Assembly: GCA_964291405.2 (NCBI GenBank)
Contig: OZ219926.1
Location: 1,600,001-1,664,000 of the forward strand
Length of the DNA stretch: 64,000 nucleotides
Reading direction: 5' to 3'
Source of the DNA: Thermodesulfobacteriota bacterium
Lineage (GTDB): Bacteria; Desulfobacterota; Binatia; Bin18
The notes beneath the pieces were generated by a model that saw only the letters and a program-made list of their open reading frames with translations, searched no databases and was not told the DNA's origin. Below, piece by piece: positions 52,861 through 62,290 of this stretch (positions are counted from its first letter, which is position 1; each line of letters begins with the position of its first letter). A program made the position numbers and the translations under genes.

Positions 52861-52886
52861 GTTTGGGGTGTTGGCGGGCAAACTTA

Positions 52887-52957
52887 TTGACAAAGCAAGC
52901 CAATCGTATAGTCTTGGCTTCCCTAGTTGAAATTGATATTCATTATCAACTAGGGAA
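52887..52957 (+). promoter_or_regulatory. Sigma70-like promoter followed by a Fur-like box
   Basis: TTGACA at 52887 and TAGTCT at 52909 (16-nt spacer); GAAATTGATATTCATTATC matches the E. coli Fur consensus at 16/19. Confidence 0.8.
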
Positions 52958-53062
52958 AGAGACGGTAGAAATTGCGGCCAAGAAGGCCGCTAACCAATCG
53001 TTGAGGCCCGAGGTTCCCACACCCAGAGCCCGTAAGGACAGCAATCCTTGCGGGCTTTTTTT
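52921..53062 (+). ncRNA. Candidate iron-regulated leader RNA or sRNA, copy 1
   Basis: Bounded by a promoter and a 12-bp terminator AGCCCGTAAGGA/TCCTTGCGGGCT with T tract; homologous to 62195-62290. Confidence 0.55.
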
Positions 53063-53102
53063 ATGTCTCAGAGTCATTCGTCCGGTGCGAGGTATTGGCC
53101 CC

Positions 53103-53786
53103 ATGTATGCTGAATTGACAAGATTTTTAAGTGTCGGCGGGCCGGTTATCGGCCTGCTTATTTGCCTGTCGGTGGGTGCCCTGACCGTCATTCTGATCAA
53201 GCTGTGGCAATGGCGGCGGCAGCGACCCTGGCCGCGTGACATCACGGAACAGGCCCTTGCGAATCTGGAATACGGTGAGCGGACTCTGGCCATCAACCTG
53301 TTACAGGGTCAGCGGAACTATCAGGCTCGACTCATCAGCCACACGCTGCAACTGCTCGAAACCGGCGCGCTCTCCATTGAGGAGCTCAAGGATGAATCCA
53401 GGCGATTGGCACGTTCGTTCGTCGCCAAGCTGGACAGTTACGTACGCATCCTGGAAGTAATCGCGTCGTTAGCCCCCCTGCTGGGATTATTTGGAACCGT
53501 CCTCGGCATGATTGACGCCTTTCAGGCCATGGAGGCCGCGGGCACACAGGTCAATCCGAGCGTCCTTTCGGGTGGTATCTGGAAGGCATTGCTCACAACC
53601 GCAGCCGGACTCGCCATCGCCATTCCGGTCTCAATGGCGAACAGTTGGTTTGAACGCAGGATTGAGGTTGAGGCAACCGCCATGCTGGACCGGCTGGAGC
53701 GTATTTTCACTCTTGAGGCGAAAAAGCGGGCCGAACACAGGGTCGAACATCTGCACGTGCAGCCCGGCTCCCGGCTGGCAGGATGA
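53103..53786 (+). CDS. exbB: MotA/TolQ/ExbB proton channel
   Basis: APLLGLFGTVLGMI, GGIWKALLTTAAGLAIAIP. Confidence 0.92.
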   Translation: MYAELTRFLSVGGPVIGLLICLSVGALTVILIKLWQWRRQRPWPRDITEQALANLEYGERTLAINLLQGQRNYQARLISHTLQLLETGALSIEELKDESRRLARSFVAKLDSYVRILEVIASLAPLLGLFGTVLGMIDAFQAMEAAGTQVNPSVLSGGIWKALLTTAAGLAIAIPVSMANSWFERRIEVEATAMLDRLERIFTLEAKKRAEHRVEHLHVQPGSRLAG

Positions 53787-54196
53787 ACGAGACGCCGCTG
53801 TATTATCCACGCCGCCAGCCCATCAGCCTTACCCCGCTGATCGATGTGGTGTTCATTTTGCTGATGTTCTTCATGTTGACGTCTACTTTTACGCGCTGGA
53901 AGGCGGTTGACCTGCGGTTGCCCGTCGCCAGTTCCGACGCCAGCCCGAAGAAACCCCAGGCGTTACTCCTGTATACGGATGGCTCGATCTCGTTGCGCGG
54001 ACGCCCGTTTCAGCTTTCGGACCCCGACGCGGAAGCGGCTCTCTCCGTCGCCCTTGATCCCGCTCGACCGGTCGTTGTGTTTCCCGAAGCCGACACCCGC
54101 GTGCAAACCATTATCTCCACCTTCGAGGGGCTCACCGCGGCAGGTGTTTCGGGCGCCGTTTTGGGAGTAGCCCTGGAACGGGAGGCAGAAGATTGA
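53783..54196 (+). CDS. exbD: ExbD/TolR protein
   Basis: LTPLIDVVFILLMFFML. Confidence 0.9.
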   Translation: MNETPLYYPRRQPISLTPLIDVVFILLMFFMLTSTFTRWKAVDLRLPVASSDASPKKPQALLLYTDGSISLRGRPFQLSDPDAEAALSVALDPARPVVVFPEADTRVQTIISTFEGLTAAGVSGAVLGVALEREAED

Positions 54197-54639
54197 ATCC
54201 TCGTCGGGCCGACATCCTCCTCACACACGTCAATCTACGCCGAGGACGGAGCAGTGATATTGGCGTGATTCCGCTGATAAACATCGTCCTGCTGCTGCTG
54301 ATTTTCTTTTTGATTGCCGGCCAAATGGCCGACCGGCGGGACCAACAGGGCTTCCAACCTCCGACTTCCGTCAGCAACAAACCCATCCGCCACCAACCCA
54401 TTACGCTGTCGCTGAATACACGCCGACAGCCTGCCCTCAACGGAAAGGAGCTTTCGTTCGAGGCCCTCGGTTCGGCCCTGCAAGTCGCGCTGGCCGACGA
54501 CACCCAACAGGTGGCACTGAAAATAGACCGGGACGTAACGGCCGGCACGCTCGACAAGCTCCTGGATGTCATTCGCTCCCACAATGTCACGACGGTAATG
54601 CTGTACAGCGTGAATGCGGAGGACCGGAGCCAGCCATGA
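54193..54639 (+). CDS. exbD: Second ExbD/TolR protein (Asn in place of the conserved TM Asp)
   Basis: VIPLINIVLLLLIFFLIAG, LKID. Confidence 0.85.
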   Translation: MNPRRADILLTHVNLRRGRSSDIGVIPLINIVLLLLIFFLIAGQMADRRDQQGFQPPTSVSNKPIRHQPITLSLNTRRQPALNGKELSFEALGSALQVALADDTQQVALKIDRDVTAGTLDKLLDVIRSHNVTTVMLYSVNAEDRSQP

Positions 54640-55511
54640 AATACCTGCACTGGGGTTTCGCGTTCGGGGCCGCGCTCGGAATTCATCTCGTGAGTGCGTA
54701 TGCATATTTCAATTGGGTCCCCCAACAGTCCCAACCGCGTGGGGCGATTGACTTGGGTGAAGGCGGGGTCGAGATCGGCCTGGGCCGGATTGGCTCGTAT
54801 GCAGACCTGACCGAGCGACCCGTAGTGCCGTCCGTATCCGACCAAGCCAAAACCAACGCCGCGCAGCAGGAAACAGATCCGGGGTCACAAAACGTCGAGG
54901 TCAAACCGTCTCCCCCTGCACAACCCCTGCCGGATATGAAGCCGGTAGAGGTTCCCGCTCCCGAGCCTCCGGTCGTCCCGGTCGAAAAACAGGCAGTGGT
55001 GGCTAAACGACCACCGGTCGAACCGTCAGAAACCCTCCCCCGTCCTCCCGAACCTGAGCAACCGATGCAGACAAAGCCGAGTCCCCAATATGAGGCTGCG
55101 TCCAGTCTACCGACCAGCCCTGACGTATCGACCCAAGCCGCGCCCAGCCCACGCTCATCCGTGGCGATGCGCGCGACTGGAAAACGGCAACGTCCGACTT
55201 TAGGCGGACGGGTCGGCAACCCAAAAGACTATTTCAGCTTGCTCATCGCTTGGCTAAACCAACACAAAGACTATCCCCCCGCGGTCAAGAAGAAAAAACA
55301 GCAGGGCACGGTAGTCTTGGCGTTTTCCATTGACCGCAGCGGCACCGTGCTCACCTCCCGCGTCCAAGAAAGTTCCGGCTATCCGTTATTGGATCAGGCT
55401 GCGCTCGACATGCTGGCCCGAGCCAACCCGCTGCCGGCCATGCCCGACTCCATGCCGCGCCAACGCCTGCGCCTGGCGGTGCCCATCGAATATTCGCTGG
55501 TAACGGAATAG
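54636..55511 (+). CDS. tonB: Energy transducer TonB
   Basis: TM anchor with His, Pro-rich linker, KDYP...QGTV...SSGYPLLDQAA. Confidence 0.9.
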   Translation: MKYLHWGFAFGAALGIHLVSAYAYFNWVPQQSQPRGAIDLGEGGVEIGLGRIGSYADLTERPVVPSVSDQAKTNAAQQETDPGSQNVEVKPSPPAQPLPDMKPVEVPAPEPPVVPVEKQAVVAKRPPVEPSETLPRPPEPEQPMQTKPSPQYEAASSLPTSPDVSTQAAPSPRSSVAMRATGKRQRPTLGGRVGNPKDYFSLLIAWLNQHKDYPPAVKKKKQQGTVVLAFSIDRSGTVLTSRVQESSGYPLLDQAALDMLARANPLPAMPDSMPRQRLRLAVPIEYSLVTE

Positions 55512-55534
55512 CGCCAGAATAACGGACGCGGCGC

Positions 55535-56134
55535 ATGAACGTGGACACACGCAATTTGAATCCCCCTCCGCCACGCAGACACTTGGTTGTCACCTGTCTC
55601 GTGGCTGTTGCGTTAGCGCTGAATGTTGTCCTTGTGATGTTGGCTCCCCCGGTCTCAGCCCAAGAAGCTCAGGCCACGATCACCCTGGACGTCCTCCACA
55701 TTCAGGGCCGCGTCATTGGAGAGCCCGACTGCATCACGTTTCGACACAGTCGAGCTCGTGACAGCTTCTGTGTCAGCCTTCACACACCTGACTACCGACC
55801 AAGGAGACGGTCCGGTCAACAACCCGAAGCAAAGGCTGCGCGCCCAGGCGACTACCCAAGCCAGCTTCTGGCACGGCTGAGCCAATACAAAAACTATCTG
55901 CCAGCACTGCGAAAAAAGCGGCAACAGGGCACCGTGGTGTTGGCGTTCTGCATTGACCGCAGCGGCTCAGTGCTCGCCTCCCATGTCCGAGAAAGTTCGG
56001 ACCATCCGCTGCTGGACCAAACCGCACTTGACCTGTTGGTCAAAGCCAGTCCACTACCGGCCATGCCGGATTCCACAACGCACGAGCGCCTGCATTTCGT
56101 GCTGCCAGTCAAGTTCTCCCTGACCACACGATGA
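55535..56134 (+). CDS. Short TonB C-terminal-domain paralog with an atypical N-terminus
   Basis: C-terminal ~90 aa closely copy the upstream TonB domain; no Pro-rich linker. Confidence 0.65.
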   Translation: MNVDTRNLNPPPPRRHLVVTCLVAVALALNVVLVMLAPPVSAQEAQATITLDVLHIQGRVIGEPDCITFRHSRARDSFCVSLHTPDYRPRRRSGQQPEAKAARPGDYPSQLLARLSQYKNYLPALRKKRQQGTVVLAFCIDRSGSVLASHVRESSDHPLLDQTALDLLVKASPLPAMPDSTTHERLHFVLPVKFSLTTR

Positions 56135-56163
56135 CAAATGTCCACACACGGAAGGAGCAAAGC

Positions 56164-57567
56164 ATGAAGCACAAGAAAAAGAGAGCAGGAAAGGTGAAGA
56201 AACCGCTGGAACCGTGCCGGTCCGCCACCTCTACTATGACCAATAATGCGGTCGCCCTGAGCATTTCCGCAGTGATGTTGGGTGGCACGGCCCTGGCCCA
56301 GGAGGCCCAGGACGAAGAGGAGGCCGTCTTGCTGGACAAAGTCCAGATTCAGGACCGTACAATCGATACCAACCCCTATGCCGAGTCCGGCGTGCCGTAT
56401 AAGGCCCGCGTCTCGGGTGACCTGCGCCGCCTGGAGGAACTGGCCGACACGCCCCAGACCATGACCGTACTGACCCAGACCCAGATCGAAGATTCAGGCA
56501 AATCCGATTTGCGTGAGATATTATCCGCTCAGCCCGGTATCACCTTGGGAACGGGTGAGGGCGGCAACGCCTTTGGCGACCGTTATATCATTCGTGGTCA
56601 CGAAGCCCGTAGCGACGTGTTCGTAGACGGCATGCGCGACCCCGGCATGACCATCCGCGAGAGCTTCGCTCTGGAACAGGTCGAAATCACCAAAGGTCCC
56701 AGCTCGACCTTTGCCGGTCGCGGCTCGACGGGTGGGGCCATCAACGGCATCACCAAACAGGCCAGCAGCGAATACGATTTCGTCAAGTTTCAAGGCGGCC
56801 TGGGTACCGACGAGTATTACCGGGTGCATCTGGACGCCAATAAACGTTTCACCGATGAACTGGCCGTACGGGCCAACCTGCTGTACGCCAACGAGGAAGT
56901 GCCGGACCGGGCACCCGCAGAACGTTTGCGCCGCGGCGCGGCGGTGTCCGGCAGATACGACCCCACGGACAATAAGTTCTACCTGTCCTTTGATTATTAT
57001 TTTCTTGATGCGGAGGACGACCCTGACCTCGGGACCCAGATTGAACAGTTCGGCAACCCCTTTGATGATATTCCGGTCTATCTGCAAAAGGACCGCGATT
57101 TTCTCAAGTCGGAGGTGCATACTTTTACGTTTCGGGGCGGCTATGAATTCAACGATAATTTCCGGCTGGAAAGCGTCACCCGCTATGGATTCACCGACAA
57201 CGGCTACGTGCTGACCGGAACCAGCGCCTTCTGGAAGCTGACCGGCACGGATCAAGTGGCGTGGCGGTTGAGCCAAAAAGACGGCTGGCAGGAGGTGGAC
57301 TATGTTGCCACCCAACTCAATGCCTTTCTGGACACTGGTCTGAGTTTTACCCAGCACGGTCTACTCTTGGGTGTGGAGTACTCGGAACATAATGTGCTCA
57401 ACGGACGCTATAATGTCGACCCCAGAGGCACACCCAATTGCGATGTCGAGGGGGTCTGGCGCGGCACGCTGTACAGCCGCCCCGGCAGTTATTGCATGTA
57501 CGATAACAGCGGCAATCTGACCGCCAACCTGAACAGCTTCATGGACCTCGCCATCAGCCGGGGCGAC
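56164..57567 (+). pseudogene. TonB-dependent siderophore receptor (Fiu/PiuA-like), C-terminally truncated
   Basis: DTPQT, GTGEGGNAFGDR, EQVEITKGPSS; after ~57567 the frame is just the antisense of hmuU. Confidence 0.8.
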
Positions 57568-58500
57568 AACGGTGCGAGCCAGCGTGTCGGCCACCAGCAG
57601 CAGGGTCGCACCCAGCAGAGCGGAGGCCGGAATCAACAGGCGGTGGTCCGGCCCGATGGTGAGGCGGATCATATGCGGTACGACCAGGCCCACGAAGCCG
57701 ATGATCCCGCTCGTTGCTACCGCAGCGCCGACCGCAAGGGCGACACAGATGGTCACGTTGCGTTTCAGCTGTTCACTATTGATACCGAGATAGCGCGCTT
57801 CATCCTCGCCGAGCAGCAGGATATTCAGTTTTTGGGCATTCCGAATCAGCAGCAGCGTTGCCGGCAGGACGAGCGTGGTGGCCACACTGAGTGTGGGCCA
57901 GAGGGCCGCGCCGAGGCTACCCATGGTCCAGAACGTCAAGGCGCGCAACTGGGTATCGTCGCTCAGATAGGTCAGGAAGCCGGTTCCGGCTCCGCTCAGC
58001 GCGTTGATGGCAATACCGGCCAGCAGCATATAGGTGACGGAAAAGGTTTCCATCTGTCGGGCCAGCCGAAAAATCAGCAGACAGGCCAGCAGCCCGCCGA
58101 TAAAGGCGGCGATACTCAGCCCGTACAAGCCCAGCGTACCCGTCAGAGGTCCGGCCCAGACGATCATGACCGCAACGGCCAGGGCCGCGCCGCTGGCAAT
58201 GCCGATCAGGCCGGGGTCGGCCAGAGGGTTGCGGAACAAGCCCTGCAAGGCCGCACCGGAAACGGCCAGGGCCGCGCCGACAACGCTGGCCAGCAGCACA
58301 CGCGGCAGCCGGATGGAGAAGAGGACGGCTTCCTGCTGCGTATTCAGGCTGCCGTCGAACAGCGCAACGACCGGCACGGACACCGCACCGATGCATGCAG
58401 CCGTAAGGGCAGTCAGGACGAATACCCCGCCCAGCAGCACCAACACGATCGCCCGAAGCCGCAGGAAGGGCAATACCACTGGTTTCGCTGCCCCGCTCAC
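57554..58500 (-). pseudogene. hmuU: Heme ABC transporter permease, last helix missing
   Basis: IRLPRVL, QGLFRNPLADPG, GIIGFVGLVVPH, ADTLARTVVAPA, then sequence antisense to the receptor instead of the usual ELPxG helix. Confidence 0.8.
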
Positions 58501-59348
58501 AAGCCCTGATACGCCTCGTGCAGTGTGGCCGCAGCTTGCACGGTACGCGGGCCAAACCCCAGCAACAGCAGGGCATCCATGACGATCAGGCTGCCGGTCC
58601 TGGCGGCCGGCGTGAGGGACAGCCCTGGAGCGGTCAGCAGGGCGTCCTTGCCGCCGGCCTGCGCAAGCCCCCGGGCCGTGGTGAGAATCACGTCCGGCTG
58701 CAGGGCGGCCGCGGCCTCCGGCGTAAGGGGCTTGTAGCCGGCATAGCCGGAGACGGCGTTCCGGGCACCCGAGAGTCTGATGATGCTGTCCGCGGCAGTC
58801 TCTCGGCCGGCCGCCATCGGCGCGCCGCCGCCATGCTGGAGAATGAAAAGTACCCGTTTGTCAGTCGGGTGCCCGGCCGTGACTTTTGCCAACTCGGCAG
58901 TCTGATGGTCAATGGCATCAGTCAGGGCGCTACCCGCTCGTTCTTTTTTCAGGGCGCTGGCAATCACCCGGATGGCGTCCCGTACATCCGCCAGCGAACG
59001 GCCGGCCCTCAGACTCAGGATCGGAATATTGGCCGCCTGCAACTGTGCCAGCACGGCCGGCGGTCCAGCTTCTTCGGTCAGAATCACGAGGTCGGGATAC
59101 AGCGAGACAATCCCCTCCGCGGACAGGGTGCGCTGATAACCGACCTTAGGCAGGCGTTCGGCTTCCGGCGGATAATAACTGGTGGTGTCGTTACCGACCA
59201 GCATCTCCTGCGCTTCCAGCGCATAGACGATTTCCGTCAGGGCTCCGCCAATGGTGACAACGCGGCGCGGCGCCTCGGCAAGGGCCGGCAACGCAAAAAA
59301 GATCAACCCCCAGGCCAGAATGAGACGCCGAACGGAGTCCGCTACCAT
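58497..59348 (-). CDS. hmuT: Heme ABC transporter periplasmic binding protein
   Basis: RVVTIGGALTEIVYAL, VGYQRTLSAEG (Tyr ligand), GYKPL, LLGFGPR. Confidence 0.9.
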   Translation of the reverse strand: MVADSVRRLILAWGLIFFALPALAEAPRRVVTIGGALTEIVYALEAQEMLVGNDTTSYYPPEAERLPKVGYQRTLSAEGIVSLYPDLVILTEEAGPPAVLAQLQAANIPILSLRAGRSLADVRDAIRVIASALKKERAGSALTDAIDHQTAELAKVTAGHPTDKRVLFILQHGGGAPMAAGRETAADSIIRLSGARNAVSGYAGYKPLTPEAAAALQPDVILTTARGLAQAGGKDALLTAPGLSLTPAARTGSLIVMDALLLLGFGPRTVQAAATLHEAYQGL

Positions 59349-61558
59349 TGGTACGACACCCGCGTGACAAAACTGCGGCCTTCTTCCAGCAAACTGGCGA
59401 AGCGTTTGGTGTATGCCTTATCCGCGATATTCTCGATTCCGAAGTCCACAGTCACCGCTCCCGATCCTTGGCCGGTCGGCGTCCAGTGCTGATGCGGGGT
59501 CCAGCGGAAGTAGAGGTCGTGCACGCCATAGCCGTCGGTCGGCACGTCGTTGTCGCCCACACGGTCATTTCTCTCGGCAAACCGGCCACGCCAGCCGATC
59601 ACGCCGTTGAGCGCGTCTATCCGAAACTCGACCCCTGCAACAATCGTCAGCGGCACATTGTTGAGCAGATATTCACCGGTATCGTCGTTCTTCGCCTTGA
59701 CGTAGGACAGCCCCAGTCGGGCGGTGACCAGTTCCAGTTCGTAGCGGCCCTCCGCTTCCCAGCCCATCAGGTCGGCGTCCGGGATGTTCAGGATTTTTGT
59801 CGTTCCGGCCCGGACATCGACTTCTGGGGTAATGAAGTCGTCTCCCTCGCTGGTGAACCATGACCCTTTCACGGTCACGCGGTCGTTCGCCGCCAGGACA
59901 CTCTCGAAGTTCAGCCCCGCCCCCACCTCGATTGTAGTGACGGTTTCCGGCTTCAAATCCGGATTCGGCACGAAGCGGTTGTCCGGGGCAAAAGCGGTGG
60001 GGGCGAGCACTGGGCTGCCATCGGGTCTGAGCACCGGCACCTGCACCGGACGGCCATCAGGGCCGATTACCGGGCGACCGTCCGGGCCGATTTCCGGTCT
60101 GGTCAACGGCCCGAACTCAAACGGAAACCCGCCCGGAAAATGCAGGCCAGCCGGATACAGCTCTGTCAGATTGGGAGCTCGGAACGCTTGAGCCCAGCTC
60201 CCGAACAGCATGAGGTTCTCAATCGGCTTGTAGCTCAGCGACACTTTTGGCGACACTTCGTGTTCGTTCTGCGAGTTCCCGATTTCGTCGTCGCTCTCGT
60301 AATGGTCGAAGCGCAGGGCCGGAATGAACAGCACCTCACCGATAGGGGTGTGGAGGGCGACTTCATCCTGGAGATAAAAGCCCAGCGTCAGGGCCTCGGC
60401 ATCCGGTACGCCGCTCCGCTTTCCGTCCGGGGTGGCCGAACTCTTGCCGACTTGGTCGTTCGTGTAGATTTCAAGTCCGTACGAAAACGTGTGTCCGTGC
60501 ATACCGCTCACCGCCCAGCGGGTCTGATTATCGATGGTAAAGCCGAGCGTCTCCATCTCCCGCGTCTGCACCCGACCGACGCGCCGACCGGTCACGTCTT
60601 CTTCCTCCACTTCGGTGTCGTTGTAATACAGGTGAAGTTTCGGACTCAGCCAGCGATTGGCCGGATTATCGAAGGCGTAGCGCAGGCTGAACTGGTTGTC
60701 CTGCACTTCCTTATTCACAATGATGTTGGACAGCGCCGAGCTGGCACTGGCACCGTTATTGGGCTCCTGCCCGTCGTTATTGAACACCTGCGCCTGAAAC
60801 TTGAGCGTGTGGAAGTCCTTCAGGGTATAGCCGGCTTTGAACAGGCCGGACAGCAGGCGATCGTCCGTATCCAGCTCGTTGCCGTTGCCCTGTTCTATAT
60901 CACCCGAATCGCGTAAGGAGAAATTGGCCAGGAGATCCCAGCCACGGTAACGGCCAAACCCCGTCAGGGTCGGGGCATATTCAGCGCTCGCGTTGCGATA
61001 GCCGAAAGAGGCCAGGGCACCCACGCTCTGGCCTGGAGCCAGCAGGTCCGCAGCGTCCTTTGTTTCAAAGGCCACCACGCCACCAATGCCGCCTCCCCCA
61101 TATATGGCCGAGGACGCTCCTTTGACCACTTCGATCGACTTCAGCAGCGAGGGATCAACATAGAAACGGCCGTCATGCCCGGACTCGAAATTCTGGCGGC
61201 GACCATCCATGAGCGTGATGATCGCCTCATCGTCAAAACCGCGGATGGAGATCGTCTGTCCGTTCCGCCGCGGGCCGTTATCCACTTCTACACCTGGGGT
61301 GAATTCCAGCAGGTCCGCCACGTCACCGGCCAGGGCGTTGCCTGGAGCATCCGTCTCCACCTGAGAGATAAGTGCCGGGACATCAAACGTCGGTTGCGGG
61401 CTGCGGGTGGCGTAAGAGGATATCGTGATCTTATCCAGCAATGTGGGTGGTTCCTCGTCTTGCGCATGCACCACGAGGCCAGCGCTTGTCCACAGAAAAC
61501 AGACAGCAACGAGTGCTATCGCTCCCTTGGCGATCAGTCTTGGGCGTTGAACTGCCAC
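59342..61558 (-). CDS. TonB-dependent heme/hemoglobin receptor (HmuR/ChuA-like)
   Basis: RQNFESGHDGR (plug His), FRAP, NPDLKPE, terminal SYQW. Confidence 0.9.
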   Translation of the reverse strand: MAVQRPRLIAKGAIALVAVCFLWTSAGLVVHAQDEEPPTLLDKITISSYATRSPQPTFDVPALISQVETDAPGNALAGDVADLLEFTPGVEVDNGPRRNGQTISIRGFDDEAIITLMDGRRQNFESGHDGRFYVDPSLLKSIEVVKGASSAIYGGGGIGGVVAFETKDAADLLAPGQSVGALASFGYRNASAEYAPTLTGFGRYRGWDLLANFSLRDSGDIEQGNGNELDTDDRLLSGLFKAGYTLKDFHTLKFQAQVFNNDGQEPNNGASASSALSNIIVNKEVQDNQFSLRYAFDNPANRWLSPKLHLYYNDTEVEEEDVTGRRVGRVQTREMETLGFTIDNQTRWAVSGMHGHTFSYGLEIYTNDQVGKSSATPDGKRSGVPDAEALTLGFYLQDEVALHTPIGEVLFIPALRFDHYESDDEIGNSQNEHEVSPKVSLSYKPIENLMLFGSWAQAFRAPNLTELYPAGLHFPGGFPFEFGPLTRPEIGPDGRPVIGPDGRPVQVPVLRPDGSPVLAPTAFAPDNRFVPNPDLKPETVTTIEVGAGLNFESVLAANDRVTVKGSWFTSEGDDFITPEVDVRAGTTKILNIPDADLMGWEAEGRYELELVTARLGLSYVKAKNDDTGEYLLNNVPLTIVAGVEFRIDALNGVIGWRGRFAERNDRVGDNDVPTDGYGVHDLYFRWTPHQHWTPTGQGSGAVTVDFGIENIADKAYTKRFASLLEEGRSFVTRVSYQW

Positions 61559-61631: not shown

Positions 61632-62171
61632 CTACACGACAAAGGCCAGAATCAGGCAAACGGCCAGACCGACGACACCGGTGGCGATGGTTCTGGCCCG
61701 CAGCCCCGCGCTGGACAGCCCCAGCCACAATCCGCTGAAGACAATAAACAATACGCCAACCGCCAGAACTTTCTGAAAATCCTTGAACCACAACGGACCG
61801 TGTCCCTTGTGGAGTTCGATCAGACGCTTTTGCAGGTCCGGGACGTTACGCTTCACGGTTACAGGGTCATCGGCGACCGAAATCTCATAGTGAGTCCGCG
61901 AGGTCGGACGGGTATACAGCGTATTCCCGCTCTTCTTCACGTATTCAAAGTCATGCGTGATACCGATATCGTGCAGCAGGGCCCGCACGTCGGCCTCAAG
62001 AGAAGCGGAAGCCGGATTAACGACAACACCGGAGGGCACGGTCACCGGGGTGCTGGTCACGGTACCCTTGATGCCAACGAGATAGAGTCCCCCGGAAATG
62101 GCGACGAACAACAGGGCCAGCACAAAAAACGCCGCCGCGTACAGATGCAGACTGATCCAAAAGTTACGCAT
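61632..62171 (-). CDS. PepSY-associated TM domain protein
   Basis: LHLYAAAFF...ISGG, LIELHKGHG, SGLW. Confidence 0.75.
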   Translation of the reverse strand: MRNFWISLHLYAAAFFVLALLFVAISGGLYLVGIKGTVTSTPVTVPSGVVVNPASASLEADVRALLHDIGITHDFEYVKKSGNTLYTRPTSRTHYEISVADDPVTVKRNVPDLQKRLIELHKGHGPLWFKDFQKVLAVGVLFIVFSGLWLGLSSAGLRARTIATGVVGLAVCLILAFVV

Positions 62172-62194: not shown

Positions 62195-62290
62195 AAAAAA
62201 GCCCATAAGGAGGACACTCCTTATGGGCTCTGCGCTTAGTGGCGGCTGGCCTCTCAACTTATAAGTGATTTTGAAATTCAATTTCAATAG
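62195..62290 (-). ncRNA. Candidate iron-regulated leader RNA or sRNA, copy 2
   Basis: Promoter, Fur-like box, then terminator AGCCCATAAGGA/TCCTTATGGGCT with T tract; homologous to copy 1. Confidence 0.55.

Follow-up and report, generated by a model that had tools for sequence, protein, structure and literature searches.

Leader architecture at two iron-uptake operons

The window analyzed here, a 64,000-nucleotide stretch of a Thermodesulfobacteriota genome, contains two iron-uptake operons on opposite strands, each preceded by a leader of related design. On the forward strand, an operon defined by Pfam matches and ORFs starts with the exbB ATG at 53103; on the reverse strand, a gene for a PepSY_TM-like membrane protein, whose ATG lies at 62171, is followed by a gene for a TonB-dependent receptor (TBDR). 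Within the exbB operon, two exbD and two tonB paralogues stand in tandem (54636–56134), and a 324-aa ORF without a Pfam match (58518–59492) lies directly 3′ of its TBDR gene. The features of the two leaders, hereafter copy 1 and copy 2, and of their operons are listed below.

52887–53102, + strand: copy 1 leader
52887–52892 and 52907–52912, + strand: copy 1 promoter-like hexamers TTGACA and TATAGT, read from the sequence
52923–52953, + strand: copy 1 Fur-like palindrome CTAGTTGAAATTGATATTCATTATCAACTAG, 31 bp, with a 21-mer core at 52928–52948 that has 2 mismatches relative to the family consensus
52974–52990, + strand: copy 1 optional extra hairpin GCGGCC-AAGAA-GGCCGC in a variable linker, from the predicted fold
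53000–53022, + strand: copy 1 stretch GTTGAGGCCC...CCCAC
53003–53010, + strand: copy 1 box 1, GAGGCCCG
53012–53023, + strand: copy 1 hairpin P1, GGU/ACC with a 6-nt loop
53024–53031, + strand: copy 1 box 2, CAGAGCCC, the 5′ base of the terminator stem
53025–53058, + strand: copy 1 intrinsic-terminator-like hairpin (14 pairs, 6-nt loop), with T7 at 53056–53062, then GTCTC
53103–58509, + strand: operon exbB-exbD-exbD-tonB-tonB-TonB-dependent receptor
62320–62190, − strand: copy 2 leader
62320–62292, − strand: copy 2 promoter-like site TTGACT-17 nt-TATCAT, 10/12 matches in a promoter scan
62286–62266, − strand: copy 2 Fur-like box, immediately 3′ of the promoter-like site, with 3–4 mismatches relative to the consensus
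62253–62246, − strand: copy 2 box 1, GAGGCCAG
62244–62242 with 62235–62233, − strand: copy 2 P1, CGC/GCG, with compensatory changes relative to copy 1
62232–62225, − strand: copy 2 box 2, CAGAGCCC
62231–62198, − strand: copy 2 terminator-like hairpin (15 pairs, 4-nt loop), with T6 at 62200–62195
62171–61632, − strand: PepSY_TM-like membrane protein (Pfam)
61558–59342, − strand: TonB-dependent receptor (Pfam)

Both copies are present in the sequence as the initial annotation described them, and every element that it listed was located, with a qualification that concerns the promoters. A sigma70 promoter had been assigned to each operon; the term is more secure for copy 2, in which the hexamers have the canonical 17-nt spacing, than for copy 1, in which they are only 14 nt apart (counted), a spacing that also accounts for their absence from the promoter-scan output. 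The same 14-nt spacing is conserved in relatives. The Fur-like boxes of the two copies are, as had been claimed, identical at 18 of 22 positions (4 mismatches, counted), and we take their palindrome to resemble the Escherichia coli Fur consensus. An A/T-rich palindrome at iron-gene promoters coincides here with two FUR-family genes in the genome, which is consistent with these sites being Fur boxes. Such sites are few: with up to 4 mismatches, the 21-mer palindrome consensus occurs only ~7 times in the 4.95-Mb genome, at the two window copies and a third RNA copy described below, upstream of feoA, of a porin-like gene, and of a gene for a small zinc-ribbon (Com-like) protein, and at one position that is apparently intra-coding.

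In copy 2, a short linker after the Fur-like box leads into GTTGAGAGGCCAGCCGCCACTAAGCG; in copy 1, the linker carries the extra hairpin, after which the sequence reads GTTGAGGCCCGAGGTTCCCACACC and enters the 14-bp hairpin. Relatives have, at the spot of the copy 1 linker hairpin, either different, covarying hairpins or a deletion. BLAST finds ~15 18-mers similar to this linker hairpin (GCGGCCAAGAAGGCCGC; 94% identity) dispersed through the genome, and the segment at 52974–52990 may itself be a small dispersed palindromic repeat.

Each leader ends in a hairpin with a G+C-rich stem, a short loop and at least five U, the features of an intrinsic (Rho-independent) terminator, and transcription probably stops at the U tract. 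Folded in isolation, the terminator hairpins reach −23.4 kcal/mol (copy 1) and −24.8 kcal/mol (copy 2), and the folding z-scores of the whole leaders relative to shuffles are −5.1 and −4.2, respectively. The terminator was correctly placed ~40 nt before exbB (T7 ends at 53062, and the ATG is at 53103), and the stems of the two copies differ by the G-C to A-U and U-G to U-A changes that had been noted, with unrelated loops. A 15-mer stem pattern, searched with up to 2 mismatches, matches the window three times (copy 1 and both arms of copy 2), against a shuffle mean of 0.26 and with none of 100 shuffles reaching three; thus, the two copies are not due to chance. Nor is the hairpin a generic dispersed repeat, since BLAST against the 4.95-Mb genome returns the two copies only, to which a covariance model adds the weaker third. 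The initial annotation had recognized no known RNA family, and the database search agrees: Rfam 15 at gathering thresholds yields no match in the whole window and none at the third-copy locus, and E-value mode, applied to the window and to both copies, yields only sub-threshold matches (at most 23.6 bits where 59 are needed; ncS01 and SdsR at ~20 bits).

The exbB reading frame (52863–53786) is open upstream through the entire leader and terminator, back to a TTG at 52863, which we judge to be chance. A leader peptide was considered and rejected, as both copies and their relatives have no conserved start codon after the SD-like GAGG.

A conserved RNA module among iron genes

In relatives, with titles such as "uncultured Candidatus Binatia bacterium," the exbB and PepSY genes are likewise preceded by orthologous copies, and the covariance-model search proposed in the initial annotation recovers further copies upstream of iron genes in related genomes. 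All counts include related genomes and are inflated by phylogenetic non-independence. With a first model (built from 14 sequences), 17 of 28 genomes are positive within the genus, some of the weakest matches probably being plain terminators; at the level of the order, 36 of 56 genomes are positive, and 10 of the 11 genera of the family are represented. With a second model, the element is detected in 36 of the 151 genomes that sample the class, across 11 of 19 families. Genomes of the order have up to 5–7 model matches each, often clustered, and the element is also found in metagenome-assembled genomes (MAGs) labelled as other phyla. Of 80 loci fetched with a loose DNA pattern scan of genome contigs, only 23 pass the model, most being chance matches in G+C-rich genomes.

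The consensus comprises R-GGCC-(A/C)-G, one base, a 3-bp stem with a 5–8-nt loop, Y-A, GAGCCCG, a freely varying upper stem, and CGGGCTTTTTT. GGCC of box 1 is retained in 65–66 of 66 distinct copies, and box 2 reads CAGAGCCC in 41/66, with GCCC almost invariant; the near-invariant GGCC and GAGCCC are set beside an upper terminator stem that varies freely and covaries, while the base of that stem never changes. P1 is paired in 99% of cells, taking the forms GGU/ACC, GGC/GCC, CGC/GCG, and AGC/GCU, and its loops differ in length and sequence among copies. Taken together, P1 and the upper terminator stem are 94.6% paired compared with 86.7% after shuffling, and cells in which both partners change number 125 compared with 30. 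Because the alignment had been fitted to the model, P1 pairing was retested in an alignment-free, fixed-register comparison, in which 117 of 191 sequences are fully paired versus 58.6 ± 4.4 with permuted partners. A genome-wide regular expression for the terminator base, GCCC(G/A)...GGGCTTTT, gives 21 loose matches, of which ~5 were judged real hairpins, 3 of those being this element; a base of the GGGCTTTT type is rare in the genome, and the stem base of the element is therefore not that of a generic genome terminator.

Iron-related context accompanies the sequence. A Fur-like palindrome (up to 5 mismatches) lies within 170 nt upstream of 54 of the 67 full-length copies, against a background of ~5e-4 per search window. 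ORFs that start 7–40 nt after the U tract include exbB, PepSY_TM, tonB, TBDR, feoA/feoB, imelysin, an ECF sigma factor, and a di-haem peroxidase. In a census of the 132 ORFs beginning no more than 450 nt 3′ of the 67 full-length model matches, the recurrent products are a ~70-aa protein without a family (23 ORFs), ExbB (10), imelysin-like proteins (9), PepSY_TM (8), and TonB; an epimerase (9 ORFs) recurs ~370 nt after stand-alone copies of the third type.

Two small protein families recur in this context. Members of the ~70-aa family share a pattern like vFxNxxGIxxRVCPxGxVxLxVGHT...dFLxLA with a C-terminal H, have no Pfam, PHROG, or NCBIfam match, usually stand just before an imelysin-like gene, and are encoded by the commonest gene after the element in other genera; examples are L116 2501–2737 and 7767–7970 (contig C3 of the window's own genome, at ~725.0 and ~730.3 kb) and L089 1599–1811. 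A second family of ~95–100 aa (MFRDPFI...) recurs in iron clusters (L116 2867–3151, L088 1571–1870), and its gene in the window's own genome has a terminator-less copy of the module upstream.

The weaker third copy of the window's own genome was identified with the covariance model and stands alone.

C3:732729–732793, extending to 732825 (L076 1501–1640), − strand: third copy

Its perfect Fur-like palindrome is followed by GGCCCACGGCCTTTGAGCCTC and a terminator. The copy sits after a gene for a CDGSH iron–sulfur protein, and ~368–370 nt of conserved, hairpin-rich, non-coding sequence separate it from the nearest long ORF downstream on the same strand (the epimerase). The three copies of this genome have only GGCC(A/C) in common. 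The third copy may represent a free RNA, one that perhaps serves as a decoy for the Com-like protein described below.

Other copies have no terminator at all. Many of those linked to Com-like genes keep box 1, P1, and box 2 without it; they come from another genus of the family and from records with Rokubacteria or Myxococcota labels. The window's own genome has two such copies in Fur/iron loci, one in the 5′ UTR of the porin-like gene that follows a Fur box and the other between two small genes of an iron island. Since box 2 is present in terminator-less copies, it appears to be conserved for recognition and not for terminator folding. The boxes look like a recognition site, and in the window copies a terminator has been built onto box 2.

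These distributions bear on the two readings that the initial annotation had offered, an attenuator or a family of Fur-repressed sRNAs. If the copies were trans-acting sRNA genes of the RyhB/PrrF/NrrF kind, pairing with mRNAs of iron-using proteins, the operons would be reached by leaky read-through. Each copy does have its own promoter-like site, Fur-like box, and strong terminator, from which discrete RNAs of ~95–145 nt would arise, and terminated leader RNAs would exist in any case as by-products; sRNAs of this type often have several paralogues per genome, and, because the third copy stands alone, this explanation retains some weight. It fits the distribution less well than an attenuator does: nearly all copies are sense-oriented and 7–40 nt before iron-uptake ORFs, both window copies abut ORFs, and the module also occurs within operons, where it follows Com-like ORFs, as well as in terminator-less 5′ UTRs. 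Furthermore, the conserved single-stranded stretch of only 6–9 nt is short for a seed, Hfq (PF17209) has no match in the genome (97.5% complete), and no Rfam sRNA family matches. We regard an sRNA family as unlikely, and the attenuator is the favored reading.

The spacing of the boxes raises the question of whether they act as DNA. They resemble a direct repeat ~20 bp apart, CCAG(A/C)GG...CCAGAGCC, downstream of the promoter, as would suit operators at which a Com-like or other protein bound to double-stranded DNA blocks elongation. On the other hand, the 3-bp stem that separates the boxes shows compensatory changes that are meaningful only in RNA, all 20 Com-adjacent model matches described below lie on the sense strand, and the characterized relative, Com, binds RNA (PMC6483171), so that we consider a DNA operator highly improbable. 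An internal sigma-54, ECF, or sigma-70 promoter within the module was likewise considered from the ~17-nt spacing of the boxes; the covarying P1 argues instead for an RNA role.

A Com-like zinc-ribbon protein linked to the module

In other families of the class, the module is not behind a Fur-like box; it lies directly 3′ of a small Cys4 zinc-ribbon ORF with the core RCxCGxLxAR...ELKCRRCKR, which often follows an FTR1 iron-permease gene and precedes cupredoxin-like or porin-like genes. When 80 loci were fetched by means of this protein, 20 had a model match directly downstream, every one on the sense strand, and box 1 occurs within 150 nt of the stop codon in 31 of 78 loci, where ~2 are expected (0.028 per search window). 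The pairing is also found in MAGs labelled Nitrospirota, Dehalococcoidia, Thermoflexus, Myxococcales, and Deltaproteobacteria, taxon labels that are not always reliable on such assemblies. Some of the public MAG records concerned (L173, L223, L299, L313, L350) are titled "uncultured Enterobacteriaceae bacterium," which looks wrong because their sequences resemble Binatia loci.

Profile searches relate the Cys4 protein to the Com protein of phage Mu. Of 18 members, 11 match the PHROG annotated "translational regulator" (best 3e-6) and 11 the one annotated "gpCom control of modification" (best 3e-4), Pfam Zn_ribbon_Com matches 3/18 weakly (best E 0.01), and many of 2647 homologues (E up to 0.001) bear the JGI name "phage FluMu protein Com"; a search of NCBIfam gave no match. 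The AlphaFold model is poor (pLDDT 62), Foldseek with this model returned nothing significant (best E 0.08, in BFVD), and a PDB profile search gave one irrelevant weak match. The likeness to Mu Com is remote.

Across the 151 class genomes, 25 have both module and protein, 11 the module only, 29 the protein only, and 86 neither; the protein is therefore present in 25 of the 36 genomes with the module, compared with 54/151 overall, and in 22 of the 23 whose module match has E below 5e-7. The 11 module-positive genomes in which no Com-like gene was detected have mostly weak matches, several of them resembling generic terminators. Conversely, five complete genomes of the window's genus have the Com-like gene and no detectable module, their weak model matches having been rejected as ordinary gene-end terminators; the protein is therefore not strictly dependent on the RNA.

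The window's own genome encodes a Com-like protein whose ATG (C3:724010) is directly behind a Fur-like box with 2–3 mismatches. The gene belongs to a second iron island that also contains genes for ferritin, imelysin, and a di-haem oxidoreductase, as well as feoAB and the third RNA copy. In this genus, the gene is not directly upstream of the module, unlike in the linked loci of other families, and here the protein would act in trans on several operons. It is the candidate for the antitermination factor that the initial annotation had postulated for its attenuator, an interpretation that the comparative evidence now supports.

The linkage also bears on two other explanations. The boxes and P1 could bind a metal or an iron-linked metabolite and control the terminator as a small riboswitch; in favor of this, leaders of iron genes have conserved nucleotides and a covarying helix just 5′ of their intrinsic terminator. 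Yet the conserved part is ~30 nt with a single 3-bp stem, and, by inspection, no alternative antiterminator pairing or pseudoknot holds across copy types: pairing of box 1 with either terminator arm and of P1 with box 2 was tried, and none holds in the PepSY-type copies. The sole candidate for an enclosing helix, seen in one fold, pairs box 1 with the GTCTC 3′ of the U tract; across 61 copies, its duplex energy (−6.02 kcal/mol) does not improve on that obtained with shuffled flanks (−5.87 ± 0.28 kcal/mol). Tight linkage to a gene of the RNA-binding type indicates a protein ligand instead, and we consider a riboswitch improbable.

Alternatively, the element may be passive, a leaky terminator or 5′ hairpin that lowers basal expression or stabilizes the mRNA, with boxes that serve RNA processing. 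U tracts are interrupted in many copies, and at some homologous promoters the terminator or the whole module is present in one genome and missing in another, indicating that expression does not depend on the module. This explanation leaves unaccounted for the near-invariant GGCC/GAGCCC boxes across phylum-level labels, the covarying P1, and the linkage to Com-like genes; we consider it unlikely.

A candidate antitermination gate and known systems

We propose, with about an even chance of being right in our estimate, that a Fur-controlled Com-like protein binds both boxes and blocks folding of the terminator, leading to antitermination of the iron-uptake operons. The leader RNA would then be a cis-acting gate that operates on these operons after transcription has started. 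Iron limitation would first lift Fur repression at the promoter, and the nascent RNA would expose box 1 (GGCC-A/C-G), the 3-bp hairpin, and box 2 (CAGAGCCC). As the strong terminator uses box 2 for the 5′ side of its stem base, most transcripts would stop by default 20–40 nt before the first gene. The small Cys4 Com-like protein, whose own gene in this genome stands behind a strong Fur-like box, would bind both boxes and keep box 2 single-stranded, so that the terminator would not form and polymerase would enter exbB-exbD-tonB-TBDR and PepSY-TBDR. Overall, this would constitute a feed-forward gate behind Fur. What we observe is the conserved sequence and structure, the association with Fur-like boxes and iron genes, and the genomic linkage to Com-like genes; we infer the binding of the protein to the RNA, the direction of its effect (antitermination as opposed to enhanced termination), and termination itself.

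Accounts of iron uptake normally invoke Fur at the promoter together with sRNAs. A second layer of control would be added by a conserved RNA gate situated between Fur-controlled promoters and uptake genes of the TonB, Feo, and FTR1 types. To our knowledge, the protein family of the Com-like regulator is known only as a phage translational activator; if the proposal is true, a large uncharacterized family of chromosomal "Com" proteins gains a cellular function, and annotation gains a new RNA family together with a compact protein–RNA switch. Leader terminators under protein control and RNA switches of the Com type each have precedents; what is new is their combination, which is chromosomal, iron-linked, widespread across lineages, and multi-copy. 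Full-text literature searches returned no account of this element, nor of iron regulation by a Com-like protein.

A more speculative extension, for which we hold only slim expectations, is that the chromosomal Com-like protein and the GGCC/GAGCCC module form an unrecognized post-initiation iron regulon over several phyla (by MAG label Binatia, Nitrospira, Rokubacteria, Myxococcota, and Chloroflexi). Its Cys4 site would sense metal (Fe versus Zn, apo versus holo), which would place a second iron checkpoint after Fur; the effect would be antitermination in Binatia and translational unmasking in copies that lack a terminator.

Several known systems share parts of this design. Fur-repressed sRNAs (RyhB, PrrF, NrrF, and RusT) likewise have a Fur-type box, a short transcript, and an intrinsic terminator; they differ from the present element, which has no Rfam match, no Hfq found in its genome, a leader position before iron-uptake operons, and a conserved part too short for a seed. 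LoaP and RfaH act at a conserved leader element before the intrinsic terminator of a costly operon (PMC12691694). Antitermination by such a NusG paralogue was rejected here, as PF02357 finds only one NusG-family gene in the window's genome, which therefore has no specialized paralogue. Closer in logic are LicT/SacY with their RAT sites and the ANTAR proteins, whose binding site overlaps the 5′ arm of a leader terminator so that the bound protein prevents termination (PMC5393181, PMC3369931). The Com-like fold differs from theirs, and the module has neither a RAT-like antiterminator hairpin nor the ANTAR dual-hexaloop pattern.

The nearest parallel is the com-mom system of phage Mu. Mu Com binds a short hairpin adjoining a translation-inhibition structure and opens that structure, and SELEX identified two GAG(N)2CC cores on either side of a 3–4-nt stem (PMC6483171). 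Both systems have a small Cys4 zinc-ribbon protein, a regulator gene directly upstream of its RNA target (here in the linked loci of other families), and two boxes of the GAG...CC type around a 3–4-bp stem, beside a hairpin that needs opening (PMC6483171). The boxes are not the same, being G(A/C)GGCC and GAGCCC here and GAG(N)2CC in Mu; the exact Mu core occurs in only 7 of 66 copies, and G[AC]G[GC]CC occurs twice in 46/66. The neighboring hairpin in the window is an intrinsic terminator, whereas that of Mu is a translation-inhibition structure. Finally, the genes described here are chromosomal and iron-linked instead of phage-borne, and the protein of the window's genome would control several operons in trans.
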